DNA of 64,000 bases from a virus: IMG/VR virus record IMGVR_UViG_3300020054_000866, positions 32,001 to 96,000 of that record; one strand, written 5' to 3'. Below are positions 13,512-28,837 of this stretch, one piece after another. The position numbers and the translations under genes are program-made. Position 1 is the stretch's first letter. Each line of letters begins with the position of its first letter. A model generated the notes under the pieces. It made no database searches. It was not told the DNA's origin and saw nothing but the letters and a program-made list of their open reading frames with translations.

Positions 13512-13598
13512 TTGACTAAGTCGATTTTGACGTCAATTTGTACACGAGATAAAAAAGAACGGGATAGAATTTCACTACACGTAGTGAAAGAGAATTCA

Positions 13599-14075
13599 AT
13601 GATACACATCAAAGACGGCGATAGAACTCTTCAGTTTAACGGAGAGCTACTGGGAAAATCATCATCGTGGCGAAGAGGATCTCTTCGCTGGATAGAATTC
13701 GAGCTTTACAAGACAGAAAATGGCTCGTATGTTCTATCAAGAGTCGGCGTGTCAGTAGTCTACCACGGCGCGGCCTGTCATCTTGTGAAGAGATACAATC
13801 TTCAAGATGCCCCAGTAGCGAATCTCCAAAGTAGAGAGAACATGGTCCCATGTGACTCATGCTCTCCATCATTCGCGGCAGAAATCGTGTTTCCGGAGAA
13901 GAATCGCCACTGGGCACAGGTAAGTGAGAATCCAGACGCCGTGCTCGAGGCGCTCTACAAATACGACGACAGCGGCGCACGCTACCTAACGCATGTAGCA
14001 CAGCGGCTTCTCGAGGAGGCGTCAAACGCCGATCGAGGCATCTCAGACGTCTACAGAGTAGAGATCATTCCATAA
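13599..14075 (+). CDS. Hypothetical protein (probable start ATG 13599)
   Basis: RW.EFELYKT..G.YVL.RVG.S.VYH motif, CxxC; TAGAAT upstream. Confidence 0.65.
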   Translation: MIHIKDGDRTLQFNGELLGKSSSWRRGSLRWIEFELYKTENGSYVLSRVGVSVVYHGAACHLVKRYNLQDAPVANLQSRENMVPCDSCSPSFAAEIVFPEKNRHWAQVSENPDAVLEALYKYDDSGARYLTHVAQRLLEEASNADRGISDVYRVEIIP

Positions 14076-14138: not shown

Positions 14139-15140
14139 ATGTTTATCGTCATCGAAGGCACTGACGCCTCGGGAAAGTCTACTCTTGTAGACGCTGTTGT
14201 CTCTGAACTCACCGGGCAGCGGTCAACTGCCGGCGCGATTCAGTACCACAAGGGCGCGCCGAAAGAGTTCACTCGCAAAGGCGTACTTTCAGAGTACGTA
14301 GAAGACATTCAAGACTTCAACTGGTTCTCAGCGACAGCAGTCGCTGATCGATGGCATTGGGGTGAGGTAACGTATGCTCCGATCAAGCGTCGTCATACTA
14401 ACATTGACGGCTTTGGTCTACTTGGCGTTGCTGGCTGGCGATGGACCGAGATGTTTCTTCGCGCTCGCGGCATTACTCAGTTTTGGCTGTATCAGCCGCT
14501 TGAGATTATTCAGCAAAGAATTAGAGAACGCGGAGACGACTTTGTAGAAGAGCATGAGCTCGAGCATATTTTAAGTCTCTACTCTTATGCGTTCGACAAC
14601 ACCATGTCGTGCATTAAGTTGCAGCCGTCAAACGGCGGATTAGATCAAGTAGCAAACCTGGCGCGTGACGTCATCAGCTACGCTAAGACATTGCAATCTG
14701 AAGTTCAGCATCTAGAAAGATTTACTTGGTACATCGGACCTCCAAAGCCAAAGGCGCTTCTCGTCGGTGACGAAAGAAACGACGAGACTGACACGATGTT
14801 GCCTTTCAAGCCTTCCGGTGCAAATTCAGCAGACTATTTGTTGAACGCCCTACCGTGCGAAACCTGGCGCGACTACGGAATCATAAATTCTGCCGATGTC
14901 TATGGAGAAGACATCATACGACTATATGAAGCTCTTAATCGGCCAAAAGTTATAGCCCTTGGTCGCATGGCAGAAAAGCGTCTTCGTCAATGCTCACTCT
15001 ACGAAAGTCTATACACAGTTCTTCCGCATCCTCAACATGTTAGACGATTTCACTACTCTGATCAAACAGAGTATGGTCGCGCAATTGATAGCTTCGCAAA
15101 CGGAAACACACAGGAGTATGCGTCATGGGTTCTTCGCTGA
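14139..15140 (+). CDS. Deoxynucleotide monophosphate kinase fused to a uracil-DNA-glycosylase-like domain
   Basis: P-loop IVIEGTDASGKST, DRWH.GE..Y, R..ERGD (TMP kinase family); C-terminal LLVGDE / VIALGRMA / LPHPQ resemble UDG superfamily motifs. Confidence 0.7.
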   Translation: MFIVIEGTDASGKSTLVDAVVSELTGQRSTAGAIQYHKGAPKEFTRKGVLSEYVEDIQDFNWFSATAVADRWHWGEVTYAPIKRRHTNIDGFGLLGVAGWRWTEMFLRARGITQFWLYQPLEIIQQRIRERGDDFVEEHELEHILSLYSYAFDNTMSCIKLQPSNGGLDQVANLARDVISYAKTLQSEVQHLERFTWYIGPPKPKALLVGDERNDETDTMLPFKPSGANSADYLLNALPCETWRDYGIINSADVYGEDIIRLYEALNRPKVIALGRMAEKRLRQCSLYESLYTVLPHPQHVRRFHYSDQTEYGRAIDSFANGNTQEYASWVLR

Positions 15141-15997
15141 CAGCAATTCACATCGAAGACGGAGTAAACGGCTACGTTGATCTTGTTCATCACGTGCTTG
15201 AGCACGGCCGCGAGGTGTCCCCACGCGGTGTGAAGACAAGAGAAATTGAAGACGCAACTGTATTCATAGACAACGTGTACGACGCAATGCCGATGGGCGT
15301 TGGTCGAGGTGTCGTCCCGGGCATTGGCGCCGTTGAGGCGTGCCAACTCGTCGCCGGTAGGAGCACGCCACGGACAGTGATTGCTATAGGTCCGCAGTTT
15401 ACGAATTACGCTGAGAACAACGGAGAATTTCACGGAGCGTACGGTCTACGTACAAATGGCCAGTACGCTCACGTTGTAGACAAAATCAAGAGTGACCCAG
15501 ACACGCGGCAAGCAGTCGTGACGATCTGGAACCCTGAGTTTGACAACATGCCACAGAAGCGTGACTACCCATGCACAGTTCTTCATCAGTTTAGAGTTCG
15601 TGACGGCAAACTAAATATGAGTGTCTACATGCGCTCAAACGACGTGTGGCTTGGTGCAGCGTACGACTTTTTCCAGTTCACGCGGGTGCAGTTAGCGATC
15701 TGCTCGATACTTGGAATAGAGCCAGGCACGTATGCGCATCACGTTGGGTCGCTTCACATCTACGAGTCAAATATAGATGCGGTGACTAAGTTGCGTAAGA
15801 CGAGCGCCCCTGTCGACCCAATTCCGTATTTTGCTGGCAACTCGTGGGCAGACGTCGCACTATCTGCGCAGAACTGTCTTCTCGCCGTTGACCCCGAAGC
15901 TTTGCACGTACCGGAGCTAAACGATACAGAGCTCTGGTACGTTAACGCAATGCGCTCCGCTATCGAGAGCAACGAGGCCAAACTCGGAAATGCCTAG
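15125..15997 (+). CDS. Thymidylate synthase homologue, predicted dCMP hydroxymethylase-type
   Basis: PRG..T.E, GAYG, DTRQA, catalytic PC (C150), YMRSNDVWLGAAYD with Asp181 where ThyA has Asn, SLHIYE. Confidence 0.75.
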   Translation: MGSSLTAIHIEDGVNGYVDLVHHVLEHGREVSPRGVKTREIEDATVFIDNVYDAMPMGVGRGVVPGIGAVEACQLVAGRSTPRTVIAIGPQFTNYAENNGEFHGAYGLRTNGQYAHVVDKIKSDPDTRQAVVTIWNPEFDNMPQKRDYPCTVLHQFRVRDGKLNMSVYMRSNDVWLGAAYDFFQFTRVQLAICSILGIEPGTYAHHVGSLHIYESNIDAVTKLRKTSAPVDPIPYFAGNSWADVALSAQNCLLAVDPEALHVPELNDTELWYVNAMRSAIESNEAKLGNA

Positions 15998-16202
15998 TGA
16001 TGAAAACGAAGAAGCTTTTGAGTATGCGTCTCCGATGCATGCCGCAGCGATTGGCATGCACGAGATGTACATCACGCTGAAGTCTGCCGGGTTTTCAAGA
16101 ACTGAAGCTCTCGAGTTGATAGCAAGAATGCTTTCATACGGAGTCACAGAGACTCTAATAATTGAGAGCGAGCTTGGTGACGATGACGACGACGACGACT
16201 AA
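15990..16202 (+). CDS. Small acidic hypothetical protein
   Basis: HE.Y..L..AGFSR.EALEL motif; overlaps both neighbours. Confidence 0.65.
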   Translation: MPSDENEEAFEYASPMHAAAIGMHEMYITLKSAGFSRTEALELIARMLSYGVTETLIIESELGDDDDDDD

Positions 16203-16671
16203 CGCGCGGCCATCGTGGCAGTCGACATGGCTCACCGTTGCGACTGTTATTTCGCTGCGCTCACGGTGCTCAAGAGCGCAGATGGGCGCAGTTGTAGTGT
16301 CAAAAGACCAGCGTGTCTGCGCCACCGGCTATAACGGGCCGTCGGCGTCGTGGCCTGAAAGCGGCGACTGTATCGACTGGTGCCCAAGAGCGCGCGGCGA
16401 GTCACCACTAGACAACATCTATGACCAGTGCCCGTCAATTCACGCTGAAGCAAACGCGCTGCTGTACGTAGACAGATCAAGCGTTGAAGGCGGAACAATA
16501 TACATCACAAGTCCGCCGTGTATGCAGTGCGCAAAGCTAATTACAAATTCCGGGTTGTTGCACGTCGTATGTTATATTGGCGAGCACGACATGCACCGCA
16601 ATCCGTTGGATGTCGTCGAGTACATTAAAAAGTGTGGAATAAGCGTTACGCTTGTCGCGCACTCGGAGTGA
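16183..16671 (+). CDS. dCMP deaminase
   Basis: RPSW, RS.C.R...GA.VV, TGYNG, HAEANAL and PCxxC zinc motifs; ATG 16183 preferred over TTG 16162. Confidence 0.85.
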   Translation: MTTTTTNARPSWQSTWLTVATVISLRSRCSRAQMGAVVVSKDQRVCATGYNGPSASWPESGDCIDWCPRARGESPLDNIYDQCPSIHAEANALLYVDRSSVEGGTIYITSPPCMQCAKLITNSGLLHVVCYIGEHDMHRNPLDVVEYIKKCGISVTLVAHSE

Positions 16672-16677
16672 CGTATA

Positions 16678-18495
16678 GTGGCTGATCTTTCTCAAGTACA
16701 ACTTCACCTTGTCAACAGCGTAGAGTCTGCGAATGACTTTCTTTCGTGGCTTAGCGAACGACGGCCACACAACGCCATCGCGATCGACACGGAGACGGGC
16801 GAGATACCTGGAAACCCGAGGCAGCATGCGCTGTCACCGTGGCACGGACGTCTTCGGCTAGTTCAGGTCGGTGATGGCATGCAGGGCTGGTCAATACCGT
16901 GGGACGAATGGTCGGGAGTGTTCTACCAGGCGATGGAGCGCTTTGACGGTCCGATCGTCTGCCACAACATCGCGTTCGAGGCACGCTGGTTTGAGACTCA
17001 GTCACGCTGGAAAATGCCATGGCATCGCGCGCATGACACGATGATTATGGCTCACATTGTCGACCCGCTTGGTTCAGGCGCACTGAAGCGTCTTGCCGCG
17101 CTGCACGTCGACGCGCGTGCAGTTGCATTACAAGACACTCTTGATCAAGAGCTATCAGCCAACGGTTGGACCTGGGGAACTGTTCCCACAAACTTTGAGC
17201 CGTACTGGTCGTATGGCGCGCTCGACTGCGTTCTTACAATGCGTCTCTGGGAAATGTTCTACGAAAAGTGCGGACCTAACGGCGCGTACCACAAACCGTA
17301 TGAGCTCGAGATGGCGACTCGTAAGATCGTCACGAGAATGGAGATCAACGGCGCTCGAGTTGATCTTGACTACTCGCAGAGAAAGTACAACGAGCTTAGC
17401 TCATACACCGAGTCTGTAAAGAACTGGGCTAAGAATACGTACAACGGAACTTCTATAACGAGCAACATACAACTTGTTCGGCTGTTTGAGAGTCTTGGCG
17501 CTGAGATCACTGAGTTTACTCCGACCGGTCAGAAGTCTTGCACAAAGGATCAATTGAGGCTGCTAGCACAGAGCCCGATAGCGGAGGTCGCTAATCTCGC
17601 GGACACTGTTCTCAAGCAGCGTAAGGCCGACAAACTTGCTGGAACGTACTTTCTAAACTTTCTCACTGAGTCAATTGACGGCATTGTTCACCCGTCTGTG
17701 AAGACTCTTGGCGCTCGAACGAGCAGAATGTCGATCACAAATCCGGCGCTACAGACATTGCCGAAAGGCGATGACGTTGTTCGCCGAGCGTTCATCCCAA
17801 AAGACGATGACCACGTGATTATCACTTCTGACCTCGACCAGGTTGAGTTCAGAATGTTCGCGTCTCTATCTAAAGATCCAAATCTAATTACGCTGTTCAA
17901 CAGGGCGGACGCAACTGGCTCTGACCCGTTCACGGAGATTGGCAGAGAGATCTACAACGATCCGACGATGCAGAAGTCCGATAAGCGCCGCGCGCTGATT
18001 AAAGGCACGGTGTACGGAAGACTCTATGGCGCCGGTGTCGCGAAGCAAGCCGTAACTGCCGGCGTTCCTGAGCCACAGATGCGACAAGTTTCTGATGCAT
18101 TTGATCGCAGATTTCCGGGCATGTCGTACTTTCAAAAGCAGATCGAGGACGCCGGCATGCGAAGGTTGCAGAGCGAGGGCCAAGGCTACGTATATACGTG
18201 GACAGGAAGAAGACTGCCGTGCGACGAAGACAGAGTTTACACGCTTGTGAACTACCTCATTCAGGGTGGAGCGGCAGAGGTCTTCAAAGCAAATCTTGTC
18301 AAACTCGATCAAGCCGATTTGACTGAACTTCTCATCGTCCCGGTTCACGACGAAATAGTTCTACAGGCGCCACGAAAAGACGCAGACGAGATCAAGCAGA
18401 TAGTGAAGCAATGCATGACCACGTCTGACGGCTGGGATGTGCCACTGACCGCTGACGTAGACGGCCCGCTAGAGACGTGGGGCGACAAGTACTAG
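16678..18495 (+). CDS. polA: Family A DNA polymerase with 3'-5' exonuclease
   Basis: AIDTET, HNIAFE, HDTMIMAH, Y.ALD exo motifs; TSRMS..NP.LQ; motif A DLDQVEFR; motif B R...KGTVYGRLYG; N..IQG.AA; motif C VHDE. Confidence 0.95.
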   Translation: MADLSQVQLHLVNSVESANDFLSWLSERRPHNAIAIDTETGEIPGNPRQHALSPWHGRLRLVQVGDGMQGWSIPWDEWSGVFYQAMERFDGPIVCHNIAFEARWFETQSRWKMPWHRAHDTMIMAHIVDPLGSGALKRLAALHVDARAVALQDTLDQELSANGWTWGTVPTNFEPYWSYGALDCVLTMRLWEMFYEKCGPNGAYHKPYELEMATRKIVTRMEINGARVDLDYSQRKYNELSSYTESVKNWAKNTYNGTSITSNIQLVRLFESLGAEITEFTPTGQKSCTKDQLRLLAQSPIAEVANLADTVLKQRKADKLAGTYFLNFLTESIDGIVHPSVKTLGARTSRMSITNPALQTLPKGDDVVRRAFIPKDDDHVIITSDLDQVEFRMFASLSKDPNLITLFNRADATGSDPFTEIGREIYNDPTMQKSDKRRALIKGTVYGRLYGAGVAKQAVTAGVPEPQMRQVSDAFDRRFPGMSYFQKQIEDAGMRRLQSEGQGYVYTWTGRRLPCDEDRVYTLVNYLIQGGAAEVFKANLVKLDQADLTELLIVPVHDEIVLQAPRKDADEIKQIVKQCMTTSDGWDVPLTADVDGPLETWGDKY

Positions 18496-18812
18496 TGAAT
18501 AGGTACATGGAAAAAGCGATAGAGCTCGCTCACAGCAGCAAGTGCAGGCACAAGCACGGGTGCGTTGTAGTCAAAAACGGAAAGATCATTTCAAAAGCCA
18601 CAAACAAAAAAGTCGGAGACCCGTCCGTGGAGTTTCGTCTCGCGCTTCACGCGGAGTTTGCGGCTGTTGTAGCGGCAGGAACGCACGCCGCGGGTTCAAC
18701 AGTCTATGTAGCCAGAGTCCAAGCAGACGGCTCGACTGCGCTGTCTAAGCCTTGTAAGAAGTGTGAAAATATGATGAAAAGATCTGGAGTATCTAAGGTA
18801 GTGTGGACATGA
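18477..18812 (+). CDS. Second cytidine/deoxycytidylate deaminase-family protein
   Basis: H.HG.VVVK.GKII....N, HAE, SKPCKKC; the true start may be 18495 or 18507. Confidence 0.75.
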   Translation: MGRQVLVNRYMEKAIELAHSSKCRHKHGCVVVKNGKIISKATNKKVGDPSVEFRLALHAEFAAVVAAGTHAAGSTVYVARVQADGSTALSKPCKKCENMMKRSGVSKVVWT

Positions 18813-19273
18813 CAATTTATTTGTGCGTCGATCCAGGAAAAATGAGCGGTATAGCCGCCATAAGCTACGACCATCAAGAAGCGCCAGAGCTAGTCGCGTC
18901 AGGCGAGTACGACGCCAGAAACTATCATAAGCCGATCATAGAAACTATTGTAGCGTCTTATTACACTAAGACACCGATCAAGGTGATTTGTGAAAGGTTT
19001 ACGATCAACGCGCAGACTGTTAAGAACTCTCAAGCGCCGTACAGTCTAGAGCAGATCGGAGTTCTCAAGCACTTGATGCTTGTAAATGGGCTTGAACCCG
19101 ACGACATAGTGTTTCAGTCACCGTCAGACGCAAAGAGAATGTTTGACAACAGCGCACTGAAAAAGTTAGACTTTTGGCACAAAGGTGGAGACGGCCATGC
19201 GCTTGACGCGATACGTCACGGTTTGTTGGCAGTCACAAAGGATGGCTGGGTGCCTCGTGCTTTGTTACAATAG
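18803..19273 (+). CDS. RuvC-like Holliday junction resolvase
   Basis: LCVDPG..SG.A, ICERF, IG.L, H..DA..H RNase H-fold pattern. Confidence 0.75.
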   Translation: MDMTIYLCVDPGKMSGIAAISYDHQEAPELVASGEYDARNYHKPIIETIVASYYTKTPIKVICERFTINAQTVKNSQAPYSLEQIGVLKHLMLVNGLEPDDIVFQSPSDAKRMFDNSALKKLDFWHKGGDGHALDAIRHGLLAVTKDGWVPRALLQ

Positions 19274-19362
19274 ATACTGAAGAAAAAACTTCAACATGTG
19301 CATACTTTGCACTGTAATATGTGATACAGTGATGATTACTCAACGACGACAAGAGGTTTTTA

Positions 19363-21159
19363 GTGGCAGTTCAGGTAGAACTAAGTCAAGACGGCTCCTC
19401 AATTCACATTCATGCTGAGTGGCGATACAAAGAGCTATGTAAGAGCATCCCCGGCGCGTCGTGGGCTGCAAAAGATGGTGTTTGGAAGGTTCCTACAAGT
19501 TGGGCCTCGTGCTTGGCACTGCGATCTGTCTTTCGCGAAGAACTTGAGATCGGTAGCAGACTAACAGACTGGGCAGTCAATGAGCGCACGTCACGAGTAG
19601 ACCCGTGTAATTCACTCCGTGAGCTCGAGGCACTTCCAGACGGCGACGGCTACAATGAAGATCTGTTCCCGCACCAGCGCGCTGGAGTCGAGTTTCTCGC
19701 TGCTGCACGTCGCGCGCTTCTCGCCGATGAGCCGGGGCTAGGAAAAACAGCACAGGCTATTCGAGGATTAAAGAAAATCCAAGATCTCGGTGATGAGGTA
19801 TTCCCGGCTCTCATCGTTTGCCCGAACACCGTCAAGAAAACTTGGAAACGCGAGTTTTCTCTTTGGTGGCCAGAGGTAAACGTTCAGGTTATCGCCGGGT
19901 CTGCGGCTCAGAGACGCAAGCAGTTTGAAGAAGAAGCAGACGTCTACGTGATCAACTGGGAATCTCTTCGAGCGCACTCAAGGCTTGCGCCATACGGGTC
20001 TGTTGCGCTTGCTCGATGCGTTGAGTGCGGGGGTCACGACGACAAAGTCAGTGAGACTCGTTGCGAGGTCCACCAACGTGAGCTAAATCAGATTGATTTC
20101 AAGGCGGTTGTAGCCGACGAGATCCACAGATCGAAGGACCCAAAGAGCAAGCAGACGCGTGCGCTATGGTCTGCGACTGGCGAGGCCGACATTAGATTCG
20201 CGATGACTGGCACTCCAATCGCTAATGACGTTCTTGATTTTTGGCCGATTCTGCATTGGATTTCCCCCGAGGAGTGGCCGAGCAAGACTAGGTGGATCGA
20301 CAGAATGGTCGACATCATGCTCAACGCATTTGGTGGCATGATGGTTCTTGGCGTAAAGCCGCACATGCGCGATGAGTTCTACGCCGCAATCAACCCGAGG
20401 ATGCGTAGGATGCTTAAAGAGCGCGTGCTCCCATGGCTCCCGCCCGTAATCATGGACAGACGCGATGTCGAGATGTCGGCTAAGCAACGAAAAGCGTACA
20501 CTCAGATGCAGGAAGTAATGATCGCCGAACTGGAGCACGGCGATGCTATTACTGCGCCAAGTCCGTTGACACAGACACTTCGTCTACTTCAATTTGCAAG
20601 CTCTTTTGCGGAGATAGACGTAGACGAAATGACTGGAGAAATCCAAGTAAAGCTCGCTGAGCCATCGTGCAAGGTCGACGCGTTGATGGACGATATACAG
20701 AACGGAGACTTTGGAGATGACTCAGTTGCCGTCTGCGCTGTTTCTAGGCAGCTAATTGAACTGCTGAGCGCGCGCCTAGAAAAAGCCAAAATTCCTCACG
20801 GGCTAATCACAGGCGCACAGGACGAAGACGAGCGTCAGCAGGCAATTGATGATTTCCAAGAAGGAAGAATCAAGTGGATTCTCTTCACCGCGCAGGCGGG
20901 TGGCGTTGGAGTGACGTTGACTGCTGCTCGGCGGCTTATCATGCTTCAGCGCCCGTGGTCACTTGTCGACTACAAACAGGCACTAGACAGAGTTCATCGC
21001 ATCGGGTCAGAGATTCACGACTCTATTTTGATCACGGACTACGTTACCGAGGGCACTATTGAGGAGAGAGTCATTGACGTGCTGGACGTAAAATCTGAGA
21101 ACTTTGAAGAAGTCGTTCAAGATAAAGCAAAGCTTCTCAAGATGCTAAAGGGAGAGTGA
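19363..21159 (+). CDS. SNF2-family (SF2) helicase
   Basis: LFPHQ..GV, LLADEPGLGKT, DEIH, MTGTP, GG.G.TLT.A, QA.DR.HRIG. Confidence 0.92.
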   Translation: MAVQVELSQDGSSIHIHAEWRYKELCKSIPGASWAAKDGVWKVPTSWASCLALRSVFREELEIGSRLTDWAVNERTSRVDPCNSLRELEALPDGDGYNEDLFPHQRAGVEFLAAARRALLADEPGLGKTAQAIRGLKKIQDLGDEVFPALIVCPNTVKKTWKREFSLWWPEVNVQVIAGSAAQRRKQFEEEADVYVINWESLRAHSRLAPYGSVALARCVECGGHDDKVSETRCEVHQRELNQIDFKAVVADEIHRSKDPKSKQTRALWSATGEADIRFAMTGTPIANDVLDFWPILHWISPEEWPSKTRWIDRMVDIMLNAFGGMMVLGVKPHMRDEFYAAINPRMRRMLKERVLPWLPPVIMDRRDVEMSAKQRKAYTQMQEVMIAELEHGDAITAPSPLTQTLRLLQFASSFAEIDVDEMTGEIQVKLAEPSCKVDALMDDIQNGDFGDDSVAVCAVSRQLIELLSARLEKAKIPHGLITGAQDEDERQQAIDDFQEGRIKWILFTAQAGGVGVTLTAARRLIMLQRPWSLVDYKQALDRVHRIGSEIHDSILITDYVTEGTIEERVIDVLDVKSENFEEVVQDKAKLLKMLKGE

Positions 21160-21160
21160 C

Positions 21161-22111
21161 ATGACAGTTCTAGAGACTCCGGTAGAAATCAAGCCAATAC
21201 GCATATCCAACTCCGAGATTCAAACGTTTAAAGACTGTAGAAGAAAGTGGTGGCTAAGCTACTATAGAAGACTTCAGCCACGTGCACAAAAATACACTGG
21301 CCCACTGGCGCTCGGCACCAGGGTCCATGCGGCTCTAGACGAGTACTACTCGCAAGGAGTACCGCTTCTTGAGTCGTACGCAAAGTACGTCGAGATCGAC
21401 AAGCAAGCGCTCATTGACTCGTTTAGGGACACAGTTGAACTTGACACTGAAGCCGAACTCGGCAGAATCATGCTTGAGGGCTACCTCGAGTGGGTAGAGG
21501 AAAACGGAATTGACGCAGAACTAGAGATGATCTCGACTGAGGAGATCATCAGCATGCCACTCTTCGATGGCAGAGTCGAGTTGCAGGGAAAACTTGACAT
21601 GCGAGTCCGCAGAAAGGCGGACGGTGTTCGACTGTTTAGAGACTTCAAGACAGTCGGTGGCTCGTTTGCAGAGTTCGCCAGTCTTGCTCACATGAATGAG
21701 CAGATTCTTACGTACATGCTTCTTGAAGCGTATCAGAACAAAGATGGCGAGCGCTGCGACGGTGGCATCTTTACGATGCTCAAGAAGGTGAAAAGAACTG
21801 CTAATGCAAAGCCTCCGTTCTACGATCAGATAGAGGTTCGGCATAATCAGTTTACGCTAAGAACTTTTTGGAATCGCATACACGGAGTAATTCAAGACAT
21901 GCTTCGAGTACGTGACGCTCTTGACGAAGGCTCTGACCCGCACTACGTTGCGTACCCGAGCCCCAGCCGAGATTGCAAGTGGAAATGTCAGTTTTTCGCT
22001 GTGTGCCCGCTGTTTGACGACGGTAGCGCAGCAGAGCAAGCACTTGAGGAGCTTTTCATTACAGATGACCCGTACAGCTATTATCAGACAAATGAGCCGA
22101 AAGGTAACTAA
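21161..22111 (+). CDS. Cas4/RecB-like PD-(D/E)XK exonuclease
   Basis: IS.S....F..C.R.W, G...H.AL, GKLD, DFKT, Q...Y, C-terminal C.W.C.F...C. Confidence 0.85.
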   Translation: MTVLETPVEIKPIRISNSEIQTFKDCRRKWWLSYYRRLQPRAQKYTGPLALGTRVHAALDEYYSQGVPLLESYAKYVEIDKQALIDSFRDTVELDTEAELGRIMLEGYLEWVEENGIDAELEMISTEEIISMPLFDGRVELQGKLDMRVRRKADGVRLFRDFKTVGGSFAEFASLAHMNEQILTYMLLEAYQNKDGERCDGGIFTMLKKVKRTANAKPPFYDQIEVRHNQFTLRTFWNRIHGVIQDMLRVRDALDEGSDPHYVAYPSPSRDCKWKCQFFAVCPLFDDGSAAEQALEELFITDDPYSYYQTNEPKGN

Positions 22112-22114
22112 CAC

Positions 22115-22864
22115 ATGAGTGGTATTCAACGGTCGTTGACCATTATGGTCTACGGCGAGTCAAAGGTCGGAAAGTCGACATTCGCAGTGACAGCACCGTA
22201 CCCGCGTCTCATGCTCGACGTGGAGGGCGGACACAGATTCCTCCCGATCAACGTAAAGTACTGGGACCCGATGCGCGAGGAGCCTCCTGTAGCAGATGGA
22301 AGCTGGGACACGTGCGTTGTCAACGTGACCGAGTACGACACTGTTCTCAAGGCGTACCAGTGGCTGCAGCTCGGTAAGCATCAGTTCAAGTCGCTGATCA
22401 TCGACTCGATCTCAGAGCTCCAGGTAAAGTGCGTCGACAGCATTGCTGGAAAGAATCAAATGCAGATGCAACAGTGGGGCGAGCTTCTTCGTCACATGGG
22501 CGGTCTGCTTCGAGATCTCCGCGATCTTACGATGCACCCAGTCGCGCCTCTGGAGGCGATCGTACTTACCGCGATGGCAAGAATGGGTCAAGACGGTCGC
22601 TATCGTCCGTACCTCCAGGGGCAGCTTGCCATTCAGGCACCGTACTTCTACGACATTCTCGGCGCGGTTACCGTCGAGACATTCCCAAATCCTGACCCAA
22701 CGCAGCCGCCAATCAAGGCGCGTCAAATGTACGTCGAGCGTACTAGCGACTACGAGGCAGGCGAGCGTGTTCAGGGACGACTTGGTAAAGTCGTCGATCA
22801 ACAGAATCTCAGCGTCGAGTCGATGCTGGACATTGTCTTCGGCCCTCGGCCGAGTGAAAGCTAA
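22115..22864 (+). CDS. Sak4-like AAA ATPase / single-strand annealing recombinase
   Basis: VYGESKVGKST, LD.EGG, IIDSISE; lies between the nuclease and SSB as usual for Sak4. Confidence 0.8.
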   Translation: MSGIQRSLTIMVYGESKVGKSTFAVTAPYPRLMLDVEGGHRFLPINVKYWDPMREEPPVADGSWDTCVVNVTEYDTVLKAYQWLQLGKHQFKSLIIDSISELQVKCVDSIAGKNQMQMQQWGELLRHMGGLLRDLRDLTMHPVAPLEAIVLTAMARMGQDGRYRPYLQGQLAIQAPYFYDILGAVTVETFPNPDPTQPPIKARQMYVERTSDYEAGERVQGRLGKVVDQQNLSVESMLDIVFGPRPSES

Positions 22865-22889
22865 CAACAACAACAACACCAAAGGATAG

Positions 22890-23495
22890 GTGATAGACAT
22901 GACTAGCCTCAACTGGGGTGACCTCATCAGCGAAGCAGGGGATGTTGGCTACGAGCCACTTCCCGACGGCGACTACGATCTCAAGATCGTGGAGGCAAAC
23001 GCCAAGGTGACTCAGACTGGAAAGACGATGTTCGCAGTCAAGGCGCAGGTTACGACTGGCGCCCACGCGAAGCGTCTCGTCTGGGACAATCTCGTCGTTT
23101 CGACCGACAACCCGAACGCTCTCGCGATCTTCTTCAGGAAGATGGGAGCTCTCGGTCTCGGTCGTGACTTCTTCTCAACCAACCCGAGCAACGCTCAGAT
23201 CGAGCAGGCGCTTGTAGATCGCCCGTTCCGCGGGCAGGTTGGCAGCCGCACTTGGCAGGGCCAGAAGAAGAACGAGATCAAGGCGTACTACTCGGCCAAT
23301 CCGGCGAACGCCGTTGCCGCGTCTGCCCCTCCCGCCGCAGCTGCGGCCCCTCCCGCTGCTGCGCCAGCGCCGCCCACGGCGCCGGCTCCGGCTCCGGCCG
23401 CGCCGGTCGCTGCGCCAGAGGCCGCGCCTGTTGCGGAAGCAGCGCCCGCTGCTGCTGAGGCAGCCCCCTCAGCGCCGCCTGCTGCGCCGTTCTGA
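22890..23495 (+). CDS. Single-stranded DNA-binding protein (DUF669-like)
   Basis: EPLPDGDY...I..A, GK.M, N.IK; Ala/Pro-rich tail ending PF. Confidence 0.75.
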   Translation: MIDMTSLNWGDLISEAGDVGYEPLPDGDYDLKIVEANAKVTQTGKTMFAVKAQVTTGAHAKRLVWDNLVVSTDNPNALAIFFRKMGALGLGRDFFSTNPSNAQIEQALVDRPFRGQVGSRTWQGQKKNEIKAYYSANPANAVAASAPPAAAAAPPAAAPAPPTAPAPAPAAPVAAPEAAPVAEAAPAAAEAAPSAPPAAPF

Positions 23496-23500
23496 TAGCT

Positions 23501-23560
23501 GTAGGTGAGTCGCCCGCTCCGTCTTCAGGGGCGGGCGGCTAGCCTGCAATTTCTTTTCTA
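23501..23560 (+). terminator. Intrinsic terminator after SSB
   Basis: GC-rich hairpin AGTCGCCCGCTCC / GGGGCGGGCGGCT followed by ATTTCTTTTCT. Confidence 0.65.
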
Positions 23561-23569
23561 AGGACACAA

Positions 23570-24772
23570 ATGCGTATTCTAATGACAGGTTTTACCGCTC
23601 TGCAAATAAACACAGAGCGTAGAACGATCAAGAAGATCGACGTGCCAGCGTCTATTGCCGAAGCACTCGAGTCTCGAGGGCACTCTGTCGACTGGAGAAG
23701 AGTGACTCCCGGGGAAGATCTCTCATCATACGACGTCGCCTGGGTAAACCTTGCGCCGCTAAACTCGCTGAACGGTCGCCAGGGCGCGATGGGTGCGCTG
23801 TACACGCTCTCCTCTGGTCTGCCCGCCGTTGGATTCTTCGATGACTGGCAATTCGCCGCAGTGTTTAACGCGTCACGAGCGTTGAAGCGACATCCAGAGC
23901 TTCTGTATAAGTATCTATTGTCTGGGCCGAGAGGCGATGAGCCGGCGACGTACTACTCGTATGATGACGCGAAGGCAGCACTTGATCGCGTCGCGGCGAA
24001 GAACCCTGAGGACGCAGCGAAATGCGGTCTTGGGCGGTACTTCTTCAATGACACTGACGAGAACATCAAGCTTTACGAAAACCAACTTGTCGCTGCTGGA
24101 GAGTCTATGCTCGCTGAGCGCTGGGCAGCAGGCCTTGTTCCGGCGTGCCCAATGTACGCGTTTGGTGATAGGCAGCTCGTAAGAAAGCGAATGCCTAAGG
24201 AAATGAATGGCATAGAAGCGCTCGACCCGAGCTCGACTATCTATAACATCCTAGCGAGCAGCGAGCCGCTGCCACCGGAGAGCAAGCAGAGATCGTGGGT
24301 TCTCGGCGCGCTGATGCCGCACGATACGTGGCTAGAAAAGAAGAAGCCCGAGTGGCCGGTAGAAATCATCGGAAGCAGAAAGCTTATTAAGAAGTTCGGC
24401 GGGCAGCGTCTTGACACGGAAGAAGACGTTCTAGCGTTCTACAACAATCACTGGGGGATTCTGTCTCCGCCGTATCCACACGCTGGCAGCGGTTGGTGGA
24501 GAAGCAGATTTATGTACGCCGCTCGAGTTAGGTCTATTCTTGTAGTAGATAAAGGCGAAGGCGACCCTATCGGTGACGCGTACAAAATCACAATCAAACA
24601 AGTCGAGAGTATGAGCGACGCTGAGCTCGAGGAAACTGCCAGAGCGCAGGCCGAGTCTCTTCGCCCGTACATGCCAAGCTACGATTCTTTTGTAGATCAC
24701 TGCGAAAGAATTGTTCTTAGGGCGATCAACGAAGACAAAGGTTTGAAGATACACCCAGACGGAAGTAGATGA
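23570..24772 (+). CDS. GT-B DNA glycosyltransferase, T4 beta-glucosyltransferase-like (copy 1)
   Basis: MRILMTG, DLSSYDVAWVN...N..NG, GFFDDWQ (aligns by eye with BGT YLFTDIR), VEIIGS, W.RSR...A....LVVD, Q...L C-terminal helix. Confidence 0.6.
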   Translation: MRILMTGFTALQINTERRTIKKIDVPASIAEALESRGHSVDWRRVTPGEDLSSYDVAWVNLAPLNSLNGRQGAMGALYTLSSGLPAVGFFDDWQFAAVFNASRALKRHPELLYKYLLSGPRGDEPATYYSYDDAKAALDRVAAKNPEDAAKCGLGRYFFNDTDENIKLYENQLVAAGESMLAERWAAGLVPACPMYAFGDRQLVRKRMPKEMNGIEALDPSSTIYNILASSEPLPPESKQRSWVLGALMPHDTWLEKKKPEWPVEIIGSRKLIKKFGGQRLDTEEDVLAFYNNHWGILSPPYPHAGSGWWRSRFMYAARVRSILVVDKGEGDPIGDAYKITIKQVESMSDAELEETARAQAESLRPYMPSYDSFVDHCERIVLRAINEDKGLKIHPDGSR

Positions 24773-25794
24773 TGAAAAACATCGCGGTGACTGGGATGAC
24801 AGCATCTCAGTACTCAAGATCGCGCAATTCATCGTCACTAAGCTTTGTCGCCTGTCTAAGCGACGCTGCTACCATGTATGGAGACGACGTCCGTGTTTCG
24901 TGGATAAAGCCGTCTGTCTCTCACGCGCAAAGCGACTTTGAAGAATACGATGCGATACTTGTCGGTCTTTCTCCTCTTCTAAGTCTTGCTTCTCACTGCG
25001 CGTACGGCGTTCTTAATGTCGTCGGCATGCTAAAGGGCGATCAACGACTGCACTTCTATATTGACGCTCCTGACCCGGCAAAGATACGTCAAAGTCTGAG
25101 CGCGATTGTAAAGACGCCAGAGTCGTTGAAAAAGCCGATCTATAAGAATAGAAACGAGTACTCTAAAGTTTCTGGCTCAAGTGAGATTGTAGACAGGCTC
25201 GCTGAGTCTGCTGAGTATCTGTATTCAGACAAAAACTACAGAGTGCTGTACCCAGCGTTCTCGTTCACAGACGACGTTCACGTATCAAGAAAGTTGTTCG
25301 GGGAGGACTCGCTGAGAATGGTTCCGTTCAACTTCGATGCTCTATACACGAGGCAGGAAGTTGACGCAGTAATTTCAGCGGAGAAAAGCAAGCTATGGCT
25401 TGTAGAAAATCACAAGACGCGCTGGTTTGAGAGAATGAAAAATCTTCTTTCATATGACTGGGAACCGGTCAAAATTAAAAGAATGCAGCCGGACACCGTG
25501 TCACTAGACAGAATTTGCAGATCCACGGGAACAATCATATGCCCGCAAAACGACTCAATTACGTGGTGGACGTACAGATTAGTGCAATCTTTAGCAGCTC
25601 TAGTCCCGGTTTGTACAGAATGGCGAGATACAATCTCTATCGGGCAGTCATGGTCTGCCATACCGCAGGCCGTCGAGTCGATGAGCATAGCGGAGAGATA
25701 CTCTCTAGCATTAGAACAACTGGAGCAATACTCTCTATCTATTAGAGACGCAGAGACAGAGACATCTAGACTATTTAAGGAGCTTTCACTCTAA
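24769..25794 (+). CDS. GT-B DNA glycosyltransferase-like (copy 2, paralogue)
   Basis: IAVTGMTA.Q, DFEEYDAILVGL.PL.SL, FYIDAP, WW.YR..Q; colinear with copy 1; ATGA overlap. Confidence 0.55.
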   Translation: MMKNIAVTGMTASQYSRSRNSSSLSFVACLSDAATMYGDDVRVSWIKPSVSHAQSDFEEYDAILVGLSPLLSLASHCAYGVLNVVGMLKGDQRLHFYIDAPDPAKIRQSLSAIVKTPESLKKPIYKNRNEYSKVSGSSEIVDRLAESAEYLYSDKNYRVLYPAFSFTDDVHVSRKLFGEDSLRMVPFNFDALYTRQEVDAVISAEKSKLWLVENHKTRWFERMKNLLSYDWEPVKIKRMQPDTVSLDRICRSTGTIICPQNDSITWWTYRLVQSLAALVPVCTEWRDTISIGQSWSAIPQAVESMSIAERYSLALEQLEQYSLSIRDAETETSRLFKELSL

Positions 25795-26267
25795 TGAACA
25801 TTCTATTTAATCAGTGGCTTGAAAAGACAAAGAAGCTTCAATCAGAAGTCTACGGTGTAGATTACTCCGTGTTTCATAGCGACAGCCCAGAAGATCTTCG
25901 AGCGCTTATCGAGTACATCCGCTGGAACATGCTTGCTATTGATGACGAGCTCTCGGAGGTTCGCAAGGCGATTTCTTGGAAGCCTTGGCAGCACGACGAG
26001 CCGTACGCTGATCGCCGCGAGATTCTCAAGGAATGCGTAGACGTTCTTCATTTTGTCGCTAACATTCTCTGCGCCGCTGGTGCACTTGATGAAGATCTTG
26101 ATTCTGAGTACATCGCAAAGATGCAAATCAACGCGAATAGACAGAAGGCCGGGTACAGAGTTCTTGATGACGGCATGAAGTGCAAACTGTGCGCGCGTGC
26201 CTTAGACGACTACGACACCTCCTCGTGTAAGGAAGACGGGTGCCCGCAGCGTCATGGAGTCGTCTGA
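25794..26267 (+). CDS. All-alpha dimeric dUTPase/dCTPase (MazG superfamily) with C-terminal Cys knuckle
   Basis: DEL.E....SWKPW...E.VD.LHF...Y..K...N..RQ; CxxC...C...C tail. Confidence 0.8.
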   Translation: MNILFNQWLEKTKKLQSEVYGVDYSVFHSDSPEDLRALIEYIRWNMLAIDDELSEVRKAISWKPWQHDEPYADRREILKECVDVLHFVANILCAAGALDEDLDSEYIAKMQINANRQKAGYRVLDDGMKCKLCARALDDYDTSSCKEDGCPQRHGVV

Positions 26268-26499
26268 GTTCGCGTGGGTTGATGTTTCAGCCCAGACAAT
26301 CAAGCAAGGTGACGTACTGCGAGTAAAGCTCGATGCGTACACGACTTCTGCTGGAAAAATGCACAACGGGCGGCTAGTTCGAGTAAGAGAAGTAAAAGAC
26401 GGAGACGTAAGAGTACACACTATTGACTTAAAGACACCACATATCAACGACGCGAGGCACGCGCCTCATCGTCTTGAACGGAAGGTAAGCGTTTTATGA
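26254..26499 (+). CDS. Small SH3/KOW-like hypothetical protein
   Basis: GDVLRVK.DAY....G..HNGR...V..V.DG.V.V. Confidence 0.55.
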   Translation: MESSEFAWVDVSAQTIKQGDVLRVKLDAYTTSAGKMHNGRLVRVREVKDGDVRVHTIDLKTPHINDARHAPHRLERKVSVL

Positions 26500-26690
26500 G
26501 AGCAATAGTAAGATTTACAGCCGTCGGTAGTGACATCGAAGAGCTGCTATCAAAACTTAGAGAAGAATGGGCGTCGCTGTCAAATGGAAAAGACTTCCCA
26601 AGAGACAGCTCGATTGACATAGACAAGTTAGAAGAAACTGACGAAAAATACAGGGCCGTGTGCACCGCTCGAGTTAATATAGAAACCTGA
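26496..26690 (+). CDS. Hypothetical protein
   Basis: ATGA overlap; fills the operon gap. Confidence 0.55.
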   Translation: MRAIVRFTAVGSDIEELLSKLREEWASLSNGKDFPRDSSIDIDKLEETDEKYRAVCTARVNIET

Positions 26691-26695
26691 GGAAA

Positions 26696-27004
26696 ATGAC
26701 AAAAAAGATTGAAACCACGAGCGAGTCTCCAAGAGAGAAGATGCTTTCGGAGGCAGCAAAAATTATCTCTGGAGAGCGTGATCTTCAGTACGGCGGACCG
26801 GAAGACAATTTCCAAAGAATCGCGTCGCTATGGTCAGTCATTTTTGACAGAGACTTCAGCAAAGAAGATGTCGCAATGGCAATGATCGCAGTAAAACTCG
26901 CGCGATTTTCTTCCAACTACGGATTTCAACCAGACACCTGGACGGACATCGCGGGGTACGCGGCGTGCGGTTACGAGGTCGGGTTGATCGACTCAGGAGA
27001 GTGA
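26696..27004 (+). CDS. DUF6378-like phage protein
   Basis: L.EA..I..G.R...YG.PEDNF.RIA.LWS...DVA..M...K.AR...D.W.DIAGYAA. Confidence 0.75.
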   Translation: MTKKIETTSESPREKMLSEAAKIISGERDLQYGGPEDNFQRIASLWSVIFDRDFSKEDVAMAMIAVKLARFSSNYGFQPDTWTDIAGYAACGYEVGLIDSGE

Positions 27005-27005
27005 C

Positions 27006-28253
27006 ATGAGCACGAAAAAGTTTATCGACTGCAACGGCCTCGCTGGCTTCATGAGCCTTGGCTTTGTAAACTCCGGAATGGAGATGCTGGCAAGGACTGG
27101 GACGTTGAACTTCGGTAATCCAGTTGCAGAAGTGAATAGACATCATCTCGGCAACTCGTGGAACTCGTCATTCTCCGATGATCCGAGCGACTGGCCTGAT
27201 ATGGAAGCAGACATTGTTCTCGGCTGCCCGCCGTGCTCTGGATGGTCTCTATGGTCTGGCCCGGCAAACCGCGGGCCTGATGCTAAGGCTCACGAGCATA
27301 CTCGCGCGTTCATGAGATACGCAGCTCGCATCAAGCCGAAGATGATTGTCTTTGAATGTGTGCAGCAAGCGTACACTCAAGGACGACCAATGATGAATCA
27401 GTATCGTCAAATGGTAGAGGATCTCTCAGGCAAGCAGTACGATCTCTATCACGTCAAGCACAACAATCTCCAGGTCGGCGGATTCTCATATCGCATGCGG
27501 TACTTCTGGGTTGCTGTTGAAAAAGGCATGCCGTTTGGCGCTCACGCTGAGACGCCTAGCGAGATGCCTAGAATGATAGACGTAATTGGTGACCTCGAGC
27601 ACTGCGAGATCACGTGGGACCGACAGGCGTACTCCAACGACGGGTCGAAGTACGTTGCCGATCTCAGAAACCAAGACGGTACTGTTGACGGTCACATGAA
27701 CAAGACAAATCTCGAGTCGCAGAGAATTCAAGAAATCTTTGACATCATCGGCAACGATGGTTGGAAGCCGATGAAGCAGATGAACGAGGCTCTTAAGCTC
27801 GCCGTCGAGATGAACGGAGGGTACTTTCCACAGAGCTGGAGCAACAAAGAAGACAAGATTCGCGCCAATGACTTCTACATGGGGTTCTCACTCCCAGCAA
27901 GATGGGACGCTGAATCTTTCTGCCACGTGCTCACCGGTAGCGCGCTCGATCACGTCGTGCACCCAACGCAGCCGAGAAGAATCACTCACAGGGAGGCGGC
28001 AAGAATTCAAGGCCTTCCCGATGATTGGGAAATCGTCGCCGCGAAGGACTACACCCCGCAGAGCGCGACTTGGGGCAAGGCAGTGGCGGTGCAGGCGGCT
28101 AACTGGATCGGAGAGGCCTGCTCAGCGGCCTTAGACGGCCAGCCAAACGGTCCACAGGGTGAATTGATTGGTGATCGCGAATACCTTCTCGACACTGACA
28201 AGGGCTTTAGTAGAAACTTCGTCAAGAAGAACTTCTACCAGCGAGAAGACTAA
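27006..28253 (+). CDS. Atypical C5-cytosine DNA methyltransferase homologue
   Basis: Motif IV G.PPC.G.S (C77), motif VI FECV, motif VIII R.R.F.VA, motif IX HP...R.IT.REAARIQG.PDDW, motif X WGKAV; motif I altered to DCNGLAG. Confidence 0.85.
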   Translation: MSTKKFIDCNGLAGFMSLGFVNSGMEMLARTGTLNFGNPVAEVNRHHLGNSWNSSFSDDPSDWPDMEADIVLGCPPCSGWSLWSGPANRGPDAKAHEHTRAFMRYAARIKPKMIVFECVQQAYTQGRPMMNQYRQMVEDLSGKQYDLYHVKHNNLQVGGFSYRMRYFWVAVEKGMPFGAHAETPSEMPRMIDVIGDLEHCEITWDRQAYSNDGSKYVADLRNQDGTVDGHMNKTNLESQRIQEIFDIIGNDGWKPMKQMNEALKLAVEMNGGYFPQSWSNKEDKIRANDFYMGFSLPARWDAESFCHVLTGSALDHVVHPTQPRRITHREAARIQGLPDDWEIVAAKDYTPQSATWGKAVAVQAANWIGEACSAALDGQPNGPQGELIGDREYLLDTDKGFSRNFVKKNFYQRED

Positions 28254-28324
28254 GTCGTTCTAAAGAAAGCGCCATTTGATATAGTGGCGGCAGACAGTAG
28301 CTGTCAACTAATACGGAGCGACGC

Positions 28325-28837
28325 ATGCAATCATTTCTAGTCTCGACTGACTCGTTTGAGACAACAGCAAAAGTACTAGACAACAAGCGCCTGCATAAGC
28401 AGACTCTTGAGGCATGGCAGTGCTTGCTAACAATCTCTGGCCTAGACCCAGAGGGCAACGACCGAAACCCTAAGGGCTGGGTGAATCACCCAGTTGTAAA
28501 AATGTGGCGCGGCTACGAGACAGTGTTTGTCTCATACATCTCGGCTACGTACTTCGAGTGGCGATCGCGCGGGTACAAATCAACTCTTCTTGAGAAAACG
28601 TACAGAACGTACGATCTAGCAGTCTCACTAGGCCGTGTCTCTTCCGAGTATCGACTCCCACCATGGATGCAAGACTCTACGTACTTTAGCAGCCTATGTT
28701 CTACTCATCGGACCGCACTCCTGTGCAAGAACTACGAGTGGTACCATCAGTTCGGCTGGCCAGAGGACTCGGGGACTGCACCAGAGACGTACGAGTACTT
28801 GTGGCCTCATCAAGACGGCTACGTCATCGCCGGCTAA
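28325..28837 (+). CDS. Pyrimidine-dimer DNA glycosylase (DenV / MSMEG_6728-like)
   Basis: MQSFL....F...A..LD.KRL.KQ..E..Q...GW.NHP.V.MW.GY...PPW...HR..L..K..E.Y. Confidence 0.8.
   Translation: MQSFLVSTDSFETTAKVLDNKRLHKQTLEAWQCLLTISGLDPEGNDRNPKGWVNHPVVKMWRGYETVFVSYISATYFEWRSRGYKSTLLEKTYRTYDLAVSLGRVSSEYRLPPWMQDSTYFSSLCSTHRTALLCKNYEWYHQFGWPEDSGTAPETYEYLWPHQDGYVIAG

Follow-up and report, generated by a model that had tools for sequence, protein, structure and literature searches.

A predicted T4-like route to glycosylated 5-hydroxymethylcytosine in a putative actinobacterial siphovirus

We analyzed a 64,000-nucleotide stretch of viral DNA (hereafter, the window), corresponding to bases 32001–96000 of the 109,822-bp IMG/VR virus record IMGVR_UViG_3300020054_000866, which CheckV estimates to be ~82% complete. 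The window contains a run of plus-strand genes whose products resemble the cytosine-modifying enzymes of phage T4. Based on sequence comparisons and structural models, this phage probably replaces cytosine before replication and then glycosylates the introduced hydroxymethyl groups through a T4-like route. The evidence comprises predicted folds, signature residues, homology to T4 gp42 and gp56, synteny, and co-occurrence across phage genomes; the enzymatic activities, the extent of replacement and the sugar are predictions built on it. All genes named in a preliminary description of the window, made from the sequence alone, are present and in frame. Its proposal that the genome carries a glycosylated, C5-oxygenated cytosine agrees with several independent computational lines; of the two bases it had allowed for, 5-hydroxymethylcytosine (5hmC) is favored and 5-hydroxycytosine (5hoC) is not, as an aspartate is kept at the residue that separates the two enzyme types.

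In the proposed route, a gp56-like pyrophosphatase would convert dCTP (and dUTP) to the monophosphate, and a thymidylate synthase (TS) homolog would use methylene-tetrahydrofolate to turn dCMP into 5-hydroxymethyl-dCMP. A translationally coupled kinase, similar to SPbeta YorR and to TMP kinases (YorR/TMPK-like), would yield the diphosphate, and host nucleoside diphosphate (NDP) kinase would complete the synthesis of 5-hydroxymethyl-dCTP, which the family A DNA polymerase of the phage would incorporate. A dCMP deaminase would divert part of the dCMP to dUMP for dTMP synthesis by the host. Finally, two paralogous GT-B enzymes similar to T4 beta-glucosyltransferase (BGT), referred to as GT400 and GT341 after their lengths in residues, would transfer a sugar from an NDP-sugar to hydroxymethyl groups in DNA. 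The two glycosyltransferases (GTs) might act on different sites, or successively to build a disaccharide.

A thymidylate synthase homolog with a hydroxymethylase signature

The TS homolog, encoded at positions 15125–15997 (plus strand), is predicted to be a dCMP 5-hydroxymethylase and the functional counterpart of T4 gp42. It matches PF00303 with an E-value of 4e-27, and the match spans only model positions 2–221 of 266. Its score lies far under every NCBIfam thymidylate-synthase equivalog cut-off, and the CMP hydroxymethylase MilA is among its best PDB sequence matches. It is the sole TS homolog in the record, in which no ThyX was found. In the HMMER alignment to solved thymidylate synthases, the protein reads YMRSNDVWLGAAYDFF against YQRSADVFLGVPFNIA. 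These alignments place Asp181 at the specificity position Asn177 (the Asn of the TS motif PFNI) and Asp147 (in DYPC) at the position of Leu143 (in LAPC). C150 aligns with the catalytic cysteine of TS (C146 in E. coli), and D173, within the segment MRSND, occupies the D169 position. Alignment with T4 gp42 shows the same residues in both proteins: C150 (C148 in gp42), D181 (D179), E40 (E60), D147 at the L143 position, and MRSND. The aspartate that the preliminary description had placed at the specificity position is therefore recovered in alignments with both solved thymidylate synthases and gp42. Using the TS homolog as query, we fetched 82 related loci, and the signature E40–D147–C150–MRSND173–D181 is identical in all of them.

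The meaning of these positions has been established for characterized enzymes. The exchange N177D leads to dCMP specificity (Lee et al. 2026, PMC13326640). An acidic residue at L143, found in T4 gp42 and MilA, is associated with hydroxymethylation instead of methylation (PMC13326640). D169N is the mark of the flavin-dependent 5-hydroxy-dCMP synthases of RB69, DLP3, RL38J1 and others, whereas L143D and N177D with D169 retained characterize the T4-type 5-hydroxymethyl-dCMP synthases and MilA (PMC13326640). Two controls gave the expected residues: the td protein of Aeromonas phage 25 has QRSVD and an Asn at the N177 position, and a TS homolog of Providencia phage PSTRCR_121 has an Asn at the D169 position. 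Since L143D and N177D are both present and D169 is kept, 5-hydroxymethylation is favored over 5-hydroxylation, and, as far as sequence can tell, the protein is predicted to be a T4-type 5-hydroxymethyl-dCMP synthase. We rejected a plain thymidylate synthase as its identity, given the Asp at N177, the scores under the TS equivalog cut-offs, and the unmatched C-terminal part of the model.

Alternatively, the TS homolog could be a flavin-dependent 5-hydroxy-dCMP synthase of the RB69, DLP3 and RL38J1 type, with the GTs linking the sugar to 5hoC by an ether bond. Asp-type TS homologs with L143D/E have been shown to make 5hoC in RB69 and DLP3 (PMC13326640). Furthermore, a member of the GT400 family occurs in a Providencia T4-like phage that has a D169N-type TS homolog, beside SIS and NTP-transferase genes, and some relatives of the window carry a cassette of APH, HAD and NTP-transferase genes like the arabinose genes of RB69 (both described below). 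However, the D169N exchange is absent: the Asp within MRSND is found in the window, in each of the 82 related loci, in T4 gp42, and in the gp42 ortholog of Aeromonas phage 25. On this basis we discarded a 5-hydroxy-dCMP synthase as the identity of the protein, and we regard 5hoC glycosylation as very improbable.

Kinase and pyrophosphatase

Directly upstream of the TS gene lies the gene for a deoxynucleoside monophosphate (dNMP) kinase (14139–15140, plus strand). The stop codon of this gene overlaps the start of the TS gene, and the overlap points to coupled expression. Position 14139, where the preliminary description lets its set of genes begin, is the start of this kinase gene and not of the TS gene. 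The P-loop kinase part (residues ~1–190) matches phrog_761, ‘thymidylate kinase’ (E 6e-14). A profile built from 26 homologs matches SPbeta YorR (2axp/3kb2) with an E-value of 1e-9, and TMP kinases weakly. YorR/TMPK-like ‘nucleotide kinases’ also adjoin the TS homolog and GTs in the RB69, DLP3 and RL38J1 clusters (PMC13326640). The dNMP kinase named in the preliminary description is thus present as a YorR/TMPK-like enzyme; the further idea that the fused kinase adds a step to the pathway finds no support, as this is the kinase that the pathway is expected to have and YorR-like kinases occur in those three phages as well.

The kinase is fused to a C-terminal domain (residues ~195–333) resembling the uracil-DNA glycosylase (UDG) superfamily. 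Its 140 residues match PF03167 at an E-value of 0.025 and 15 bits, under the cut-off of 24. By protein atlas features, the domain lies near viral clusters in which 18–36% of members carry PF03167, and the atlas structure search gave a TM-score of 0.66 to a PF03167 family of UDGs of the family-4 type. The conserved motifs GDxRN, LPFxPxxxNSGxFL and HPQ are family-4-like, with the Fe-S cysteines absent. A UDG-like domain is the best reading of these data. Only the freshwater clade has this fusion; the 198-residue kinase of the cultured Gordonia phage Sixama has no UDG-like domain. We treat the domain as part of the module and assign it no step in the pathway.

The gene at 25794–26267 (plus strand) encodes a 157-residue protein of the all-alpha dimeric dUTPase/MazG-like dNTP pyrophosphatases, a predicted dCTPase/dUTPase. 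It matches PF08761 (E 3e-11) and phrog_18650 (dUTPase), and carries the motif ISWKPWQ. BLASTP aligns it to T4 gp56 over 136 residues with 26% identity (E 3e-10), and the segments IDDE, WKxW, ExVDxxHF and NxxRQxxGY are common to both proteins. By these sequence comparisons the pyrophosphatase is homologous to gp56, and the assignment of a WKPW-type dimeric enzyme matching gp56 in the preliminary description is upheld by both the PF08761 and the BLASTP results.

Two GT-B proteins resembling T4 beta-glucosyltransferase in fold

GT400 (400 residues, 23570–24772, plus strand), a predicted 5hmC-DNA glycosyltransferase, and GT341 (341 residues, 24769–25794, plus strand) were modeled with AlphaFold2 at mean predicted local distance difference test (pLDDT) scores of 97.2 and 91.5, respectively. 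Both models adopt GT-B folds. T4 BGT is the top PDB match of both in Foldseek (E 2e-7 for GT400 and 1.5e-5 for GT341) and the top match of both in VIA-align, with Z 19.4 for GT400 (307 aligned residues, root-mean-square deviation 3.9) and Z 16.8 for GT341 (299 aligned, 4.0). T4 alpha-glucosyltransferase is also within the first dozen structural matches. Phage GT-B enzymes with Foldseek E-values of 1e-5 to 1e-7 to T4 BGT glycosylate 5hmC in DNA (10.1101/2023.12.21.572611). After strand 4 in the two models we find a near-invariant D92 (in DDWQ) and an invariant D99, respectively, candidate equivalents of the catalytic Asp that follows beta-4 in BGT (D100).

Neither protein matched Pfam or NCBIfam, phmmer and profile hmmsearch runs against PDB sequences found nothing, and PHROGs gave nothing useful, with one PHROG of unknown function for GT400. 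The GT400 family has 601 representatives at 50% clustering. A word-based homolog search with GT341 returned two clusters only, giving it an orphan-like appearance; tblastn, however, finds homologs with 28–46% identity in 44 related loci, where they occupy the position of GT341. Comparison of the two families with hhalign gave a probability of 100% and an E-value of 4.5e-40 over the full length. GT400 and GT341 are distant paralogs.

Association of the GT genes with DNA cytosine chemistry

Within the replication and nucleotide module, the GT genes have DUF669 on one side and the gp56-like gene on the other, an order kept in ~80 IMG/VR loci. The module as a whole is syntenic in ~80 IMG/VR contigs and in Sixama, and such recurrence of the same order in ~80 IMG/VR loci indicates that the clustering is not due to chance. 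In Sixama (MN484601), a soil phage, the second block has the same order, with GT400-like gp127, the GT gp126, GT341-like gp125, MazG gp122, methylase-like gp120 and WhiB gp118, while gp179 and gp180 form the kinase–TS pair. Sixama is a practical test system for the whole module.

Fusions and distribution connect the GT400 family to the same chemistry. In the family member P0162 the GT is joined to a dUTPase_2 domain, in P0265 an N-terminal C5-cytosine DNA methylase precedes the GT, and in the metagenomic members P0156 and P0173 the GT is fused to class I methyltransferase domains. A search for related loci with P0265 returned none from viral or metagenome contigs. By tblastn, the family occurs in only 41 of 50,697 GenBank phage records. 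We tested six GT-carrying GenBank lineages, leaving out an Erwinia record, and in every one (DSL-LC01, Sixama, Manatee Spring siphovirus, Aeromonas phage 25, PSTRCR_121 and C48C1) there is a gene for a C5-hydroxy(methyl)cytosine-making enzyme as well. Asp-type TS homologs are found in Actinomycetia phage DSL-LC01, Sixama and Manatee Spring siphovirus, the last of which keeps D169. Aeromonas phage 25 (NC_008208) has a gp42 ortholog with 55% identity to that of T4 and an Asp at the D169 position, and PSTRCR_121 (MW385300) has a second TS homolog of the D169N type. In PSTRCR_121, the GT400-family gene is located downstream of the polymerase gene and is flanked by genes for a SIS-domain isomerase and a nucleotidyltransferase. 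Two checks proposed in the preliminary description, co-occurrence across related phage genomes and Foldseek searches with the GT-like genes, therefore came out in its favor, with a 5hmC- or 5hoC-making enzyme in 6/6 lineages and T4 BGT ranking first for both GTs. Position, fusions, distribution, and adjoining sugar-nucleotide genes support a link between the GT proteins and DNA cytosine chemistry.

Genes for sugar-nucleotide metabolism adjoin the GTs in several phages. A gene for Glf (UDP-galactopyranose mutase) stands beside the GT in DSL-LC01, Aeromonas phage 25 and C48C1. In phage C48C1 (Kyanoviridae, OQ984149; locus L120, 4586–8033), a TET/JBP dioxygenase (PF12851, E 3e-17) is followed by the GT and then by UDP-galactopyranose mutase, and no TS homolog was found in this genome. 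This GT family thus also serves a post-replicative route to 5hmC, with TET/JBP beside the GT and no TS homolog. In Aeromonas phage 25 (locus L114, 3896–6077), Glf (PF03275, E 5e-54) is directly upstream of a GT400-family member (hhalign 99.9%). None of the neighbors of this GT is GT341-like; one is Glf. This phage has been listed with genes 42 and 56 and without a glucosyltransferase (Petrov et al. 2010), and our search for a b-gt homolog, which was run without a positive control, found none. The Glf–GT pair may be the missing hmC-glycosylation system of Aeromonas phage 25, possibly a galactofuranosylation system.

In a subset of the IMG/VR relatives of the window (among them L005, 18145–20662, and L043, 10160–13144), other genes take the place of both GTs: a different protein of ~412 residues is encoded there, together with a kinase of the APH type, a HAD hydrolase and an NTP transferase. 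These relatives keep the TS signature, and the composition of their cassette resembles the NDP-sugar cassettes of RB69 and DLP3 and that of a heptosylating cluster with a methyltransferase and 5mYOX (MT/5mYOX). The pattern looks like an exchange of sugar cassettes at this position, while the 5hmC-making core upstream of it stays constant.

Points against the pathway and alternative GT targets

Several observations weigh against the proposed route. The residue rules for the product type (L143 and D169) rest on a limited set of tested enzymes. In the structural comparisons, SenB and generic GT4 enzymes score 1–3 Z units below BGT, and generic GT-B enzymes only 1.5–3 units below it. A profile of the GT family aligned to T4 b-gt (CAZy GT63) by hhalign reached a probability of only 5.6%, which is not significant. 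Because of this profile result, we place the GT proteins outside the T4 b-gt sequence family while they are BGT-like in fold; the two ‘BGT-like glycosyltransferases’ of the preliminary description hold as to fold, with T4 BGT the best structural match of both, and not as to sequence kinship. No counterparts of T4 denA, denB, alc or arn were identified, with no dedicated search for denA, denB and alc, and the record itself is only ~82% complete. Lastly, a C5-methylase-like gene is conserved in the module. An enzyme of this kind requires cytosine with a free C5, and its conservation is difficult to square with complete cytosine replacement.

The GT results bear on a further alternative, in which the DNA contains bare 5hmC (or 5-methylcytosine) and the GT-B proteins act on another acceptor, for example virion proteins, a small molecule or polymers of the host envelope. 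GT-B enzymes form a highly diverse group, many generic GT4-type enzymes score within 1.5–3 Z units of BGT, and the GTs have no sequence similarity to BGT. Galactofuranose occurs in actinobacterial walls, and the Glf of DSL-LC01 could in principle serve envelope chemistry. Yet the GT genes are part of the replication and nucleotide module, flanked by DUF669 and the gp56-like gene, and family members are fused to dUTPase_2 and to a C5-methyltransferase. Moreover, all six lineages tested encode a 5hmC- or 5hoC-making enzyme, among them T4-like phages of Gram-negative bacteria and a TET-encoding phage of a cyanophage family. Bare 5-methylcytosine is opposed by L143D, which argues against a methyl product. 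A target other than DNA is accordingly unlikely in our assessment, and glycosylation of 5hmC in DNA remains the preferred reading.

A conserved C5-methylase-like protein with a lysine in place of asparagine

The gene at 27006–28253 (plus strand) encodes a protein of the C5-cytosine-methylase fold with atypical motifs. It matches PF00145 (E 8e-23) and scores under the NCBIfam dcm cut-off; its alignments to PDB C5-methyltransferases include 3g7u, chains of plant DNA (cytosine-5)-methyltransferase 1, and M.HaeIII, the last identified by residue range. The catalytic Pro-Cys, the Glu of motif VI, RxR, and motifs VIII and IX are kept. Its motif I is atypical, and the protein deviates further in having PCS for PCQ, ECV for ENV and GKAV for GNAV. 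In 8 relatives at 60–100% identity these residues do not vary, and the PCS, ESV and GK motifs persist in Sixama gp120 (35% identity).

The Lys of GKAV lies at the position of HhaI N304 and CmoX R350. CmoX is a natural carboxymethyltransferase with Arg350 at the HhaI Asn304 position, where it binds the carboxylate of carboxy-S-adenosylmethionine (Cx-SAM), and engineered M.MpeI N374K behaves like CmoX and uses Cx-SAM (PMC12783734). The window protein shares with CmoX the C5-methyltransferase fold, the catalytic Cys, and a basic residue in place of the motif X Asn, the last also a feature of M.MpeI N374K. CmoX is defined by Arg together with SPPC, whereas the window protein has Lys together with CPPC. 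Neither CmoA, the Cx-SAM synthase that partners CmoX, nor CmoY was found in the record; for CmoA (TIGR00740), no match at E≤1 was obtained in the 110-kb record, itself 82% complete. In DSL-LC01, a ‘class I SAM MTase’ adjoins the methylase; it has no Pfam or NCBIfam match, and no homolog of it was found in the window.

The conservation of the methylase-like protein may reflect partial replacement of cytosine, action on host DNA or RNA, or chemistry on 5hmC, and we assign it no step in the pathway. One version combines two layers: the DNA would contain mostly glycosyl-5hmC, and the Lys-variant enzyme would add another C5 group, such as carboxymethyl from Cx-SAM, at a sequence motif on residual cytosine or on host DNA. 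This fits the retention of the gene in the module from freshwater phages to Sixama, and the conservation of the Cys, the Glu, RxR and an invariant Lys at the N304 position, where Arg350 of CmoX and N374K of M.MpeI go with the use of Cx-SAM (PMC12783734). Against it stand the absence of CmoA from the record, CPPC and Lys instead of the SPPC and Arg of CmoX, and the atypical motif I-like segment; the gp56-like enzyme also predicts that little dCTP is available for incorporation. We consider partial replacement or a second layer conceivable but doubtful. A still undescribed cytosine modification in freshwater actinophages and Gordonia phages like Sixama is likewise a speculative proposal with a low chance of being correct. 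It would join 5hmC bearing a di- or branched glycan, assembled by the two paralogous GTs and varying in its sugar between relatives (galactofuranose, arabinose-like or heptose-like), to a motif-specific C5 adduct, made by the Lys-variant with a non-SAM cofactor or by its action on 5hmC, and a UDG-like domain policing uracil, 5-hydroxymethyluracil or unmodified cytosine.

Comparison with known systems

The T4 pathway (gp56, gp42, gp1, cd, and alpha- and beta-glucosyltransferase) has the same logic and the same order of steps as the set of enzymes in the window. The window phage differs from T4 in its probable actinobacterial host, its siphovirus-type virion and its family A polymerase; its kinase is YorR/TMPK-like with a UDG-like fusion rather than gp1-like, its GTs lack sequence similarity to alpha- and beta-gt, and its module includes a conserved C5-methylase-like gene. 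The matching of the window genes to the roles of T4 gp42, gp1, gp56, cd, bgt and denV in the preliminary description consequently applies in part: the counterparts of gp42 and gp56 are homologs, the kinase is of another type, and the GTs correspond in fold only. To call the set a complete toolkit was an overstatement, as counterparts of alc and of the T4 nucleases that degrade cytosine-containing DNA were not identified (no search was aimed at them), the DenV-like protein is a repair enzyme, and the second deaminase occurs in 13 loci only.

The RB69, DLP3 and RL38J1 clusters (PMC13326640) are similar to the window in having an N177D, L143D/E TS homolog, an adjoining YorR/TMPK-like kinase and GT-B transferases. 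Sugar-nucleotide genes are part of the architecture of these clusters too, and relatives of the window have Glf, or APH kinase with HAD and NTP transferase. Their enzymes are D169N and make 5hoC, whereas the window enzyme keeps D169. In MT/5mYOX (TET)/GT-B clusters, the similarity of the GT-B proteins to T4 BGT is comparable to that of the window GTs; there 5hmC arises through a methyltransferase and TET, whereas the window's TS homolog is predicted to supply it ahead of replication. Among ~25,000 contigs with GTs, most of them from IMG/VR, ThyS was a more frequent neighbor of GT-B pathways than 5mYOX (10.1101/2023.12.21.572611). Since GT-B/ThyS contigs have already been mined from IMG/VR, the class of pathway is known, and the clade of the window may already be within that set.

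In the literature, we found no report of modified cytosine in actinophages, and no experimental hydroxymethylcytosine data for actinophages, DSL-LC01 or Aeromonas phages. As far as we have checked, the new points are the host group, the paralogous GT pair of nameless families, the kinase–UDG fusion, the conserved Lys-variant methylase, and the link of the GT family to Aeromonas phage 25. If the proposed pathway is correct, T4-style cytosine replacement and DNA glycosylation would be common in abundant freshwater actinobacterial phages and in soil Gordonia phages, and would be no speciality of T4-like myoviruses. This would bear on how phages escape restriction and CRISPR, and affect the recovery and sequencing of the DNA of these phages in metagenomes. 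It would also enlarge the pool of DNA-glycosylating enzymes for biotechnology. A candidate now exists for the glycosyltransferase ‘missing’ from Aeromonas T4-like phages that carry gene 42. The Sixama module, in addition, includes a methylase-like enzyme whose Lys occupies the site that determines the cofactor of CmoX.

Genome organization and neighboring genes

The modification genes form two blocks (14.1–18.8 kb and 23.6–28.8 kb) flanking replication genes, a layout that the preliminary description gave correctly. Between the blocks are genes for a SNF2 helicase, a PD-(D/E)XK nuclease, an AAA_24 protein (RecA-like according to the DSL-LC01 annotation) and DUF669. The first block also encodes a 169-residue dCMP deaminase (16162–16671, plus strand; PF00383, E 3e-17; phrog_174, E 2e-40), which would fill the role of T4 cd and whose presence had been stated before; it is found in 81 fetched loci. 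It is followed by the family A DNA polymerase with a 3'-5' exonuclease domain (16678–18495, plus strand; PF00476, E 2e-54; PF01612) and by a small, accessory CDA-fold deaminase of 111 residues (18477–18812, plus strand; PF00383, E 2e-13). This second deaminase had been suggested as an additional pathway step, but its occurrence in only 13 fetched loci makes it an accessory gene in a minority of relatives.

At the end of the second block, a DenV-like pyrimidine-dimer DNA glycosylase is encoded at 28325–28837 (plus strand; PF03013, E 7e-15, 55.7 bits against a cut-off of 23; NF038085, 87 bits). The protein is present as had been described. Its membership of the modification toolkit does not hold, because the PF03013 family repairs ultraviolet (UV) dimers; we rejected it as a modification step, and it is probably a neighboring UV repair enzyme.

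An actinophage is plausible because the window carries a WhiB gene, 3' of the modification region, and because the nearest GenBank relative is DSL-LC01, assembled from a lake metagenome and syntenic over the whole region. A siphovirus is plausible because a minus-strand block encodes a portal, a major capsid protein, a head–tail adaptor, a major tail protein and a 1153-residue tape measure, and no tail sheath was found among the window proteins scanned. The earlier characterization as an actinobacterial siphovirus with a family A polymerase is a fair one.

A few other genes in and around the region deserve mention. Directly 5' of the kinase gene, a 187-residue protein with no family match (13512–14075, plus strand) is found at ~68% identity in 76 fetched loci and may belong to the module. 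On the minus strand, an open reading frame of more than 4985 codons (48977–64000) runs past the end of the window and adjoins the portal-containing gene at 43822–47949. Downstream of WhiB in DSL-LC01 (locus L002, 23767–26411, minus strand), a further glycosyltransferase and a tryptophan halogenase are annotated; the matching place in the window is occupied by a structural-protein-like gene (30199–31830).

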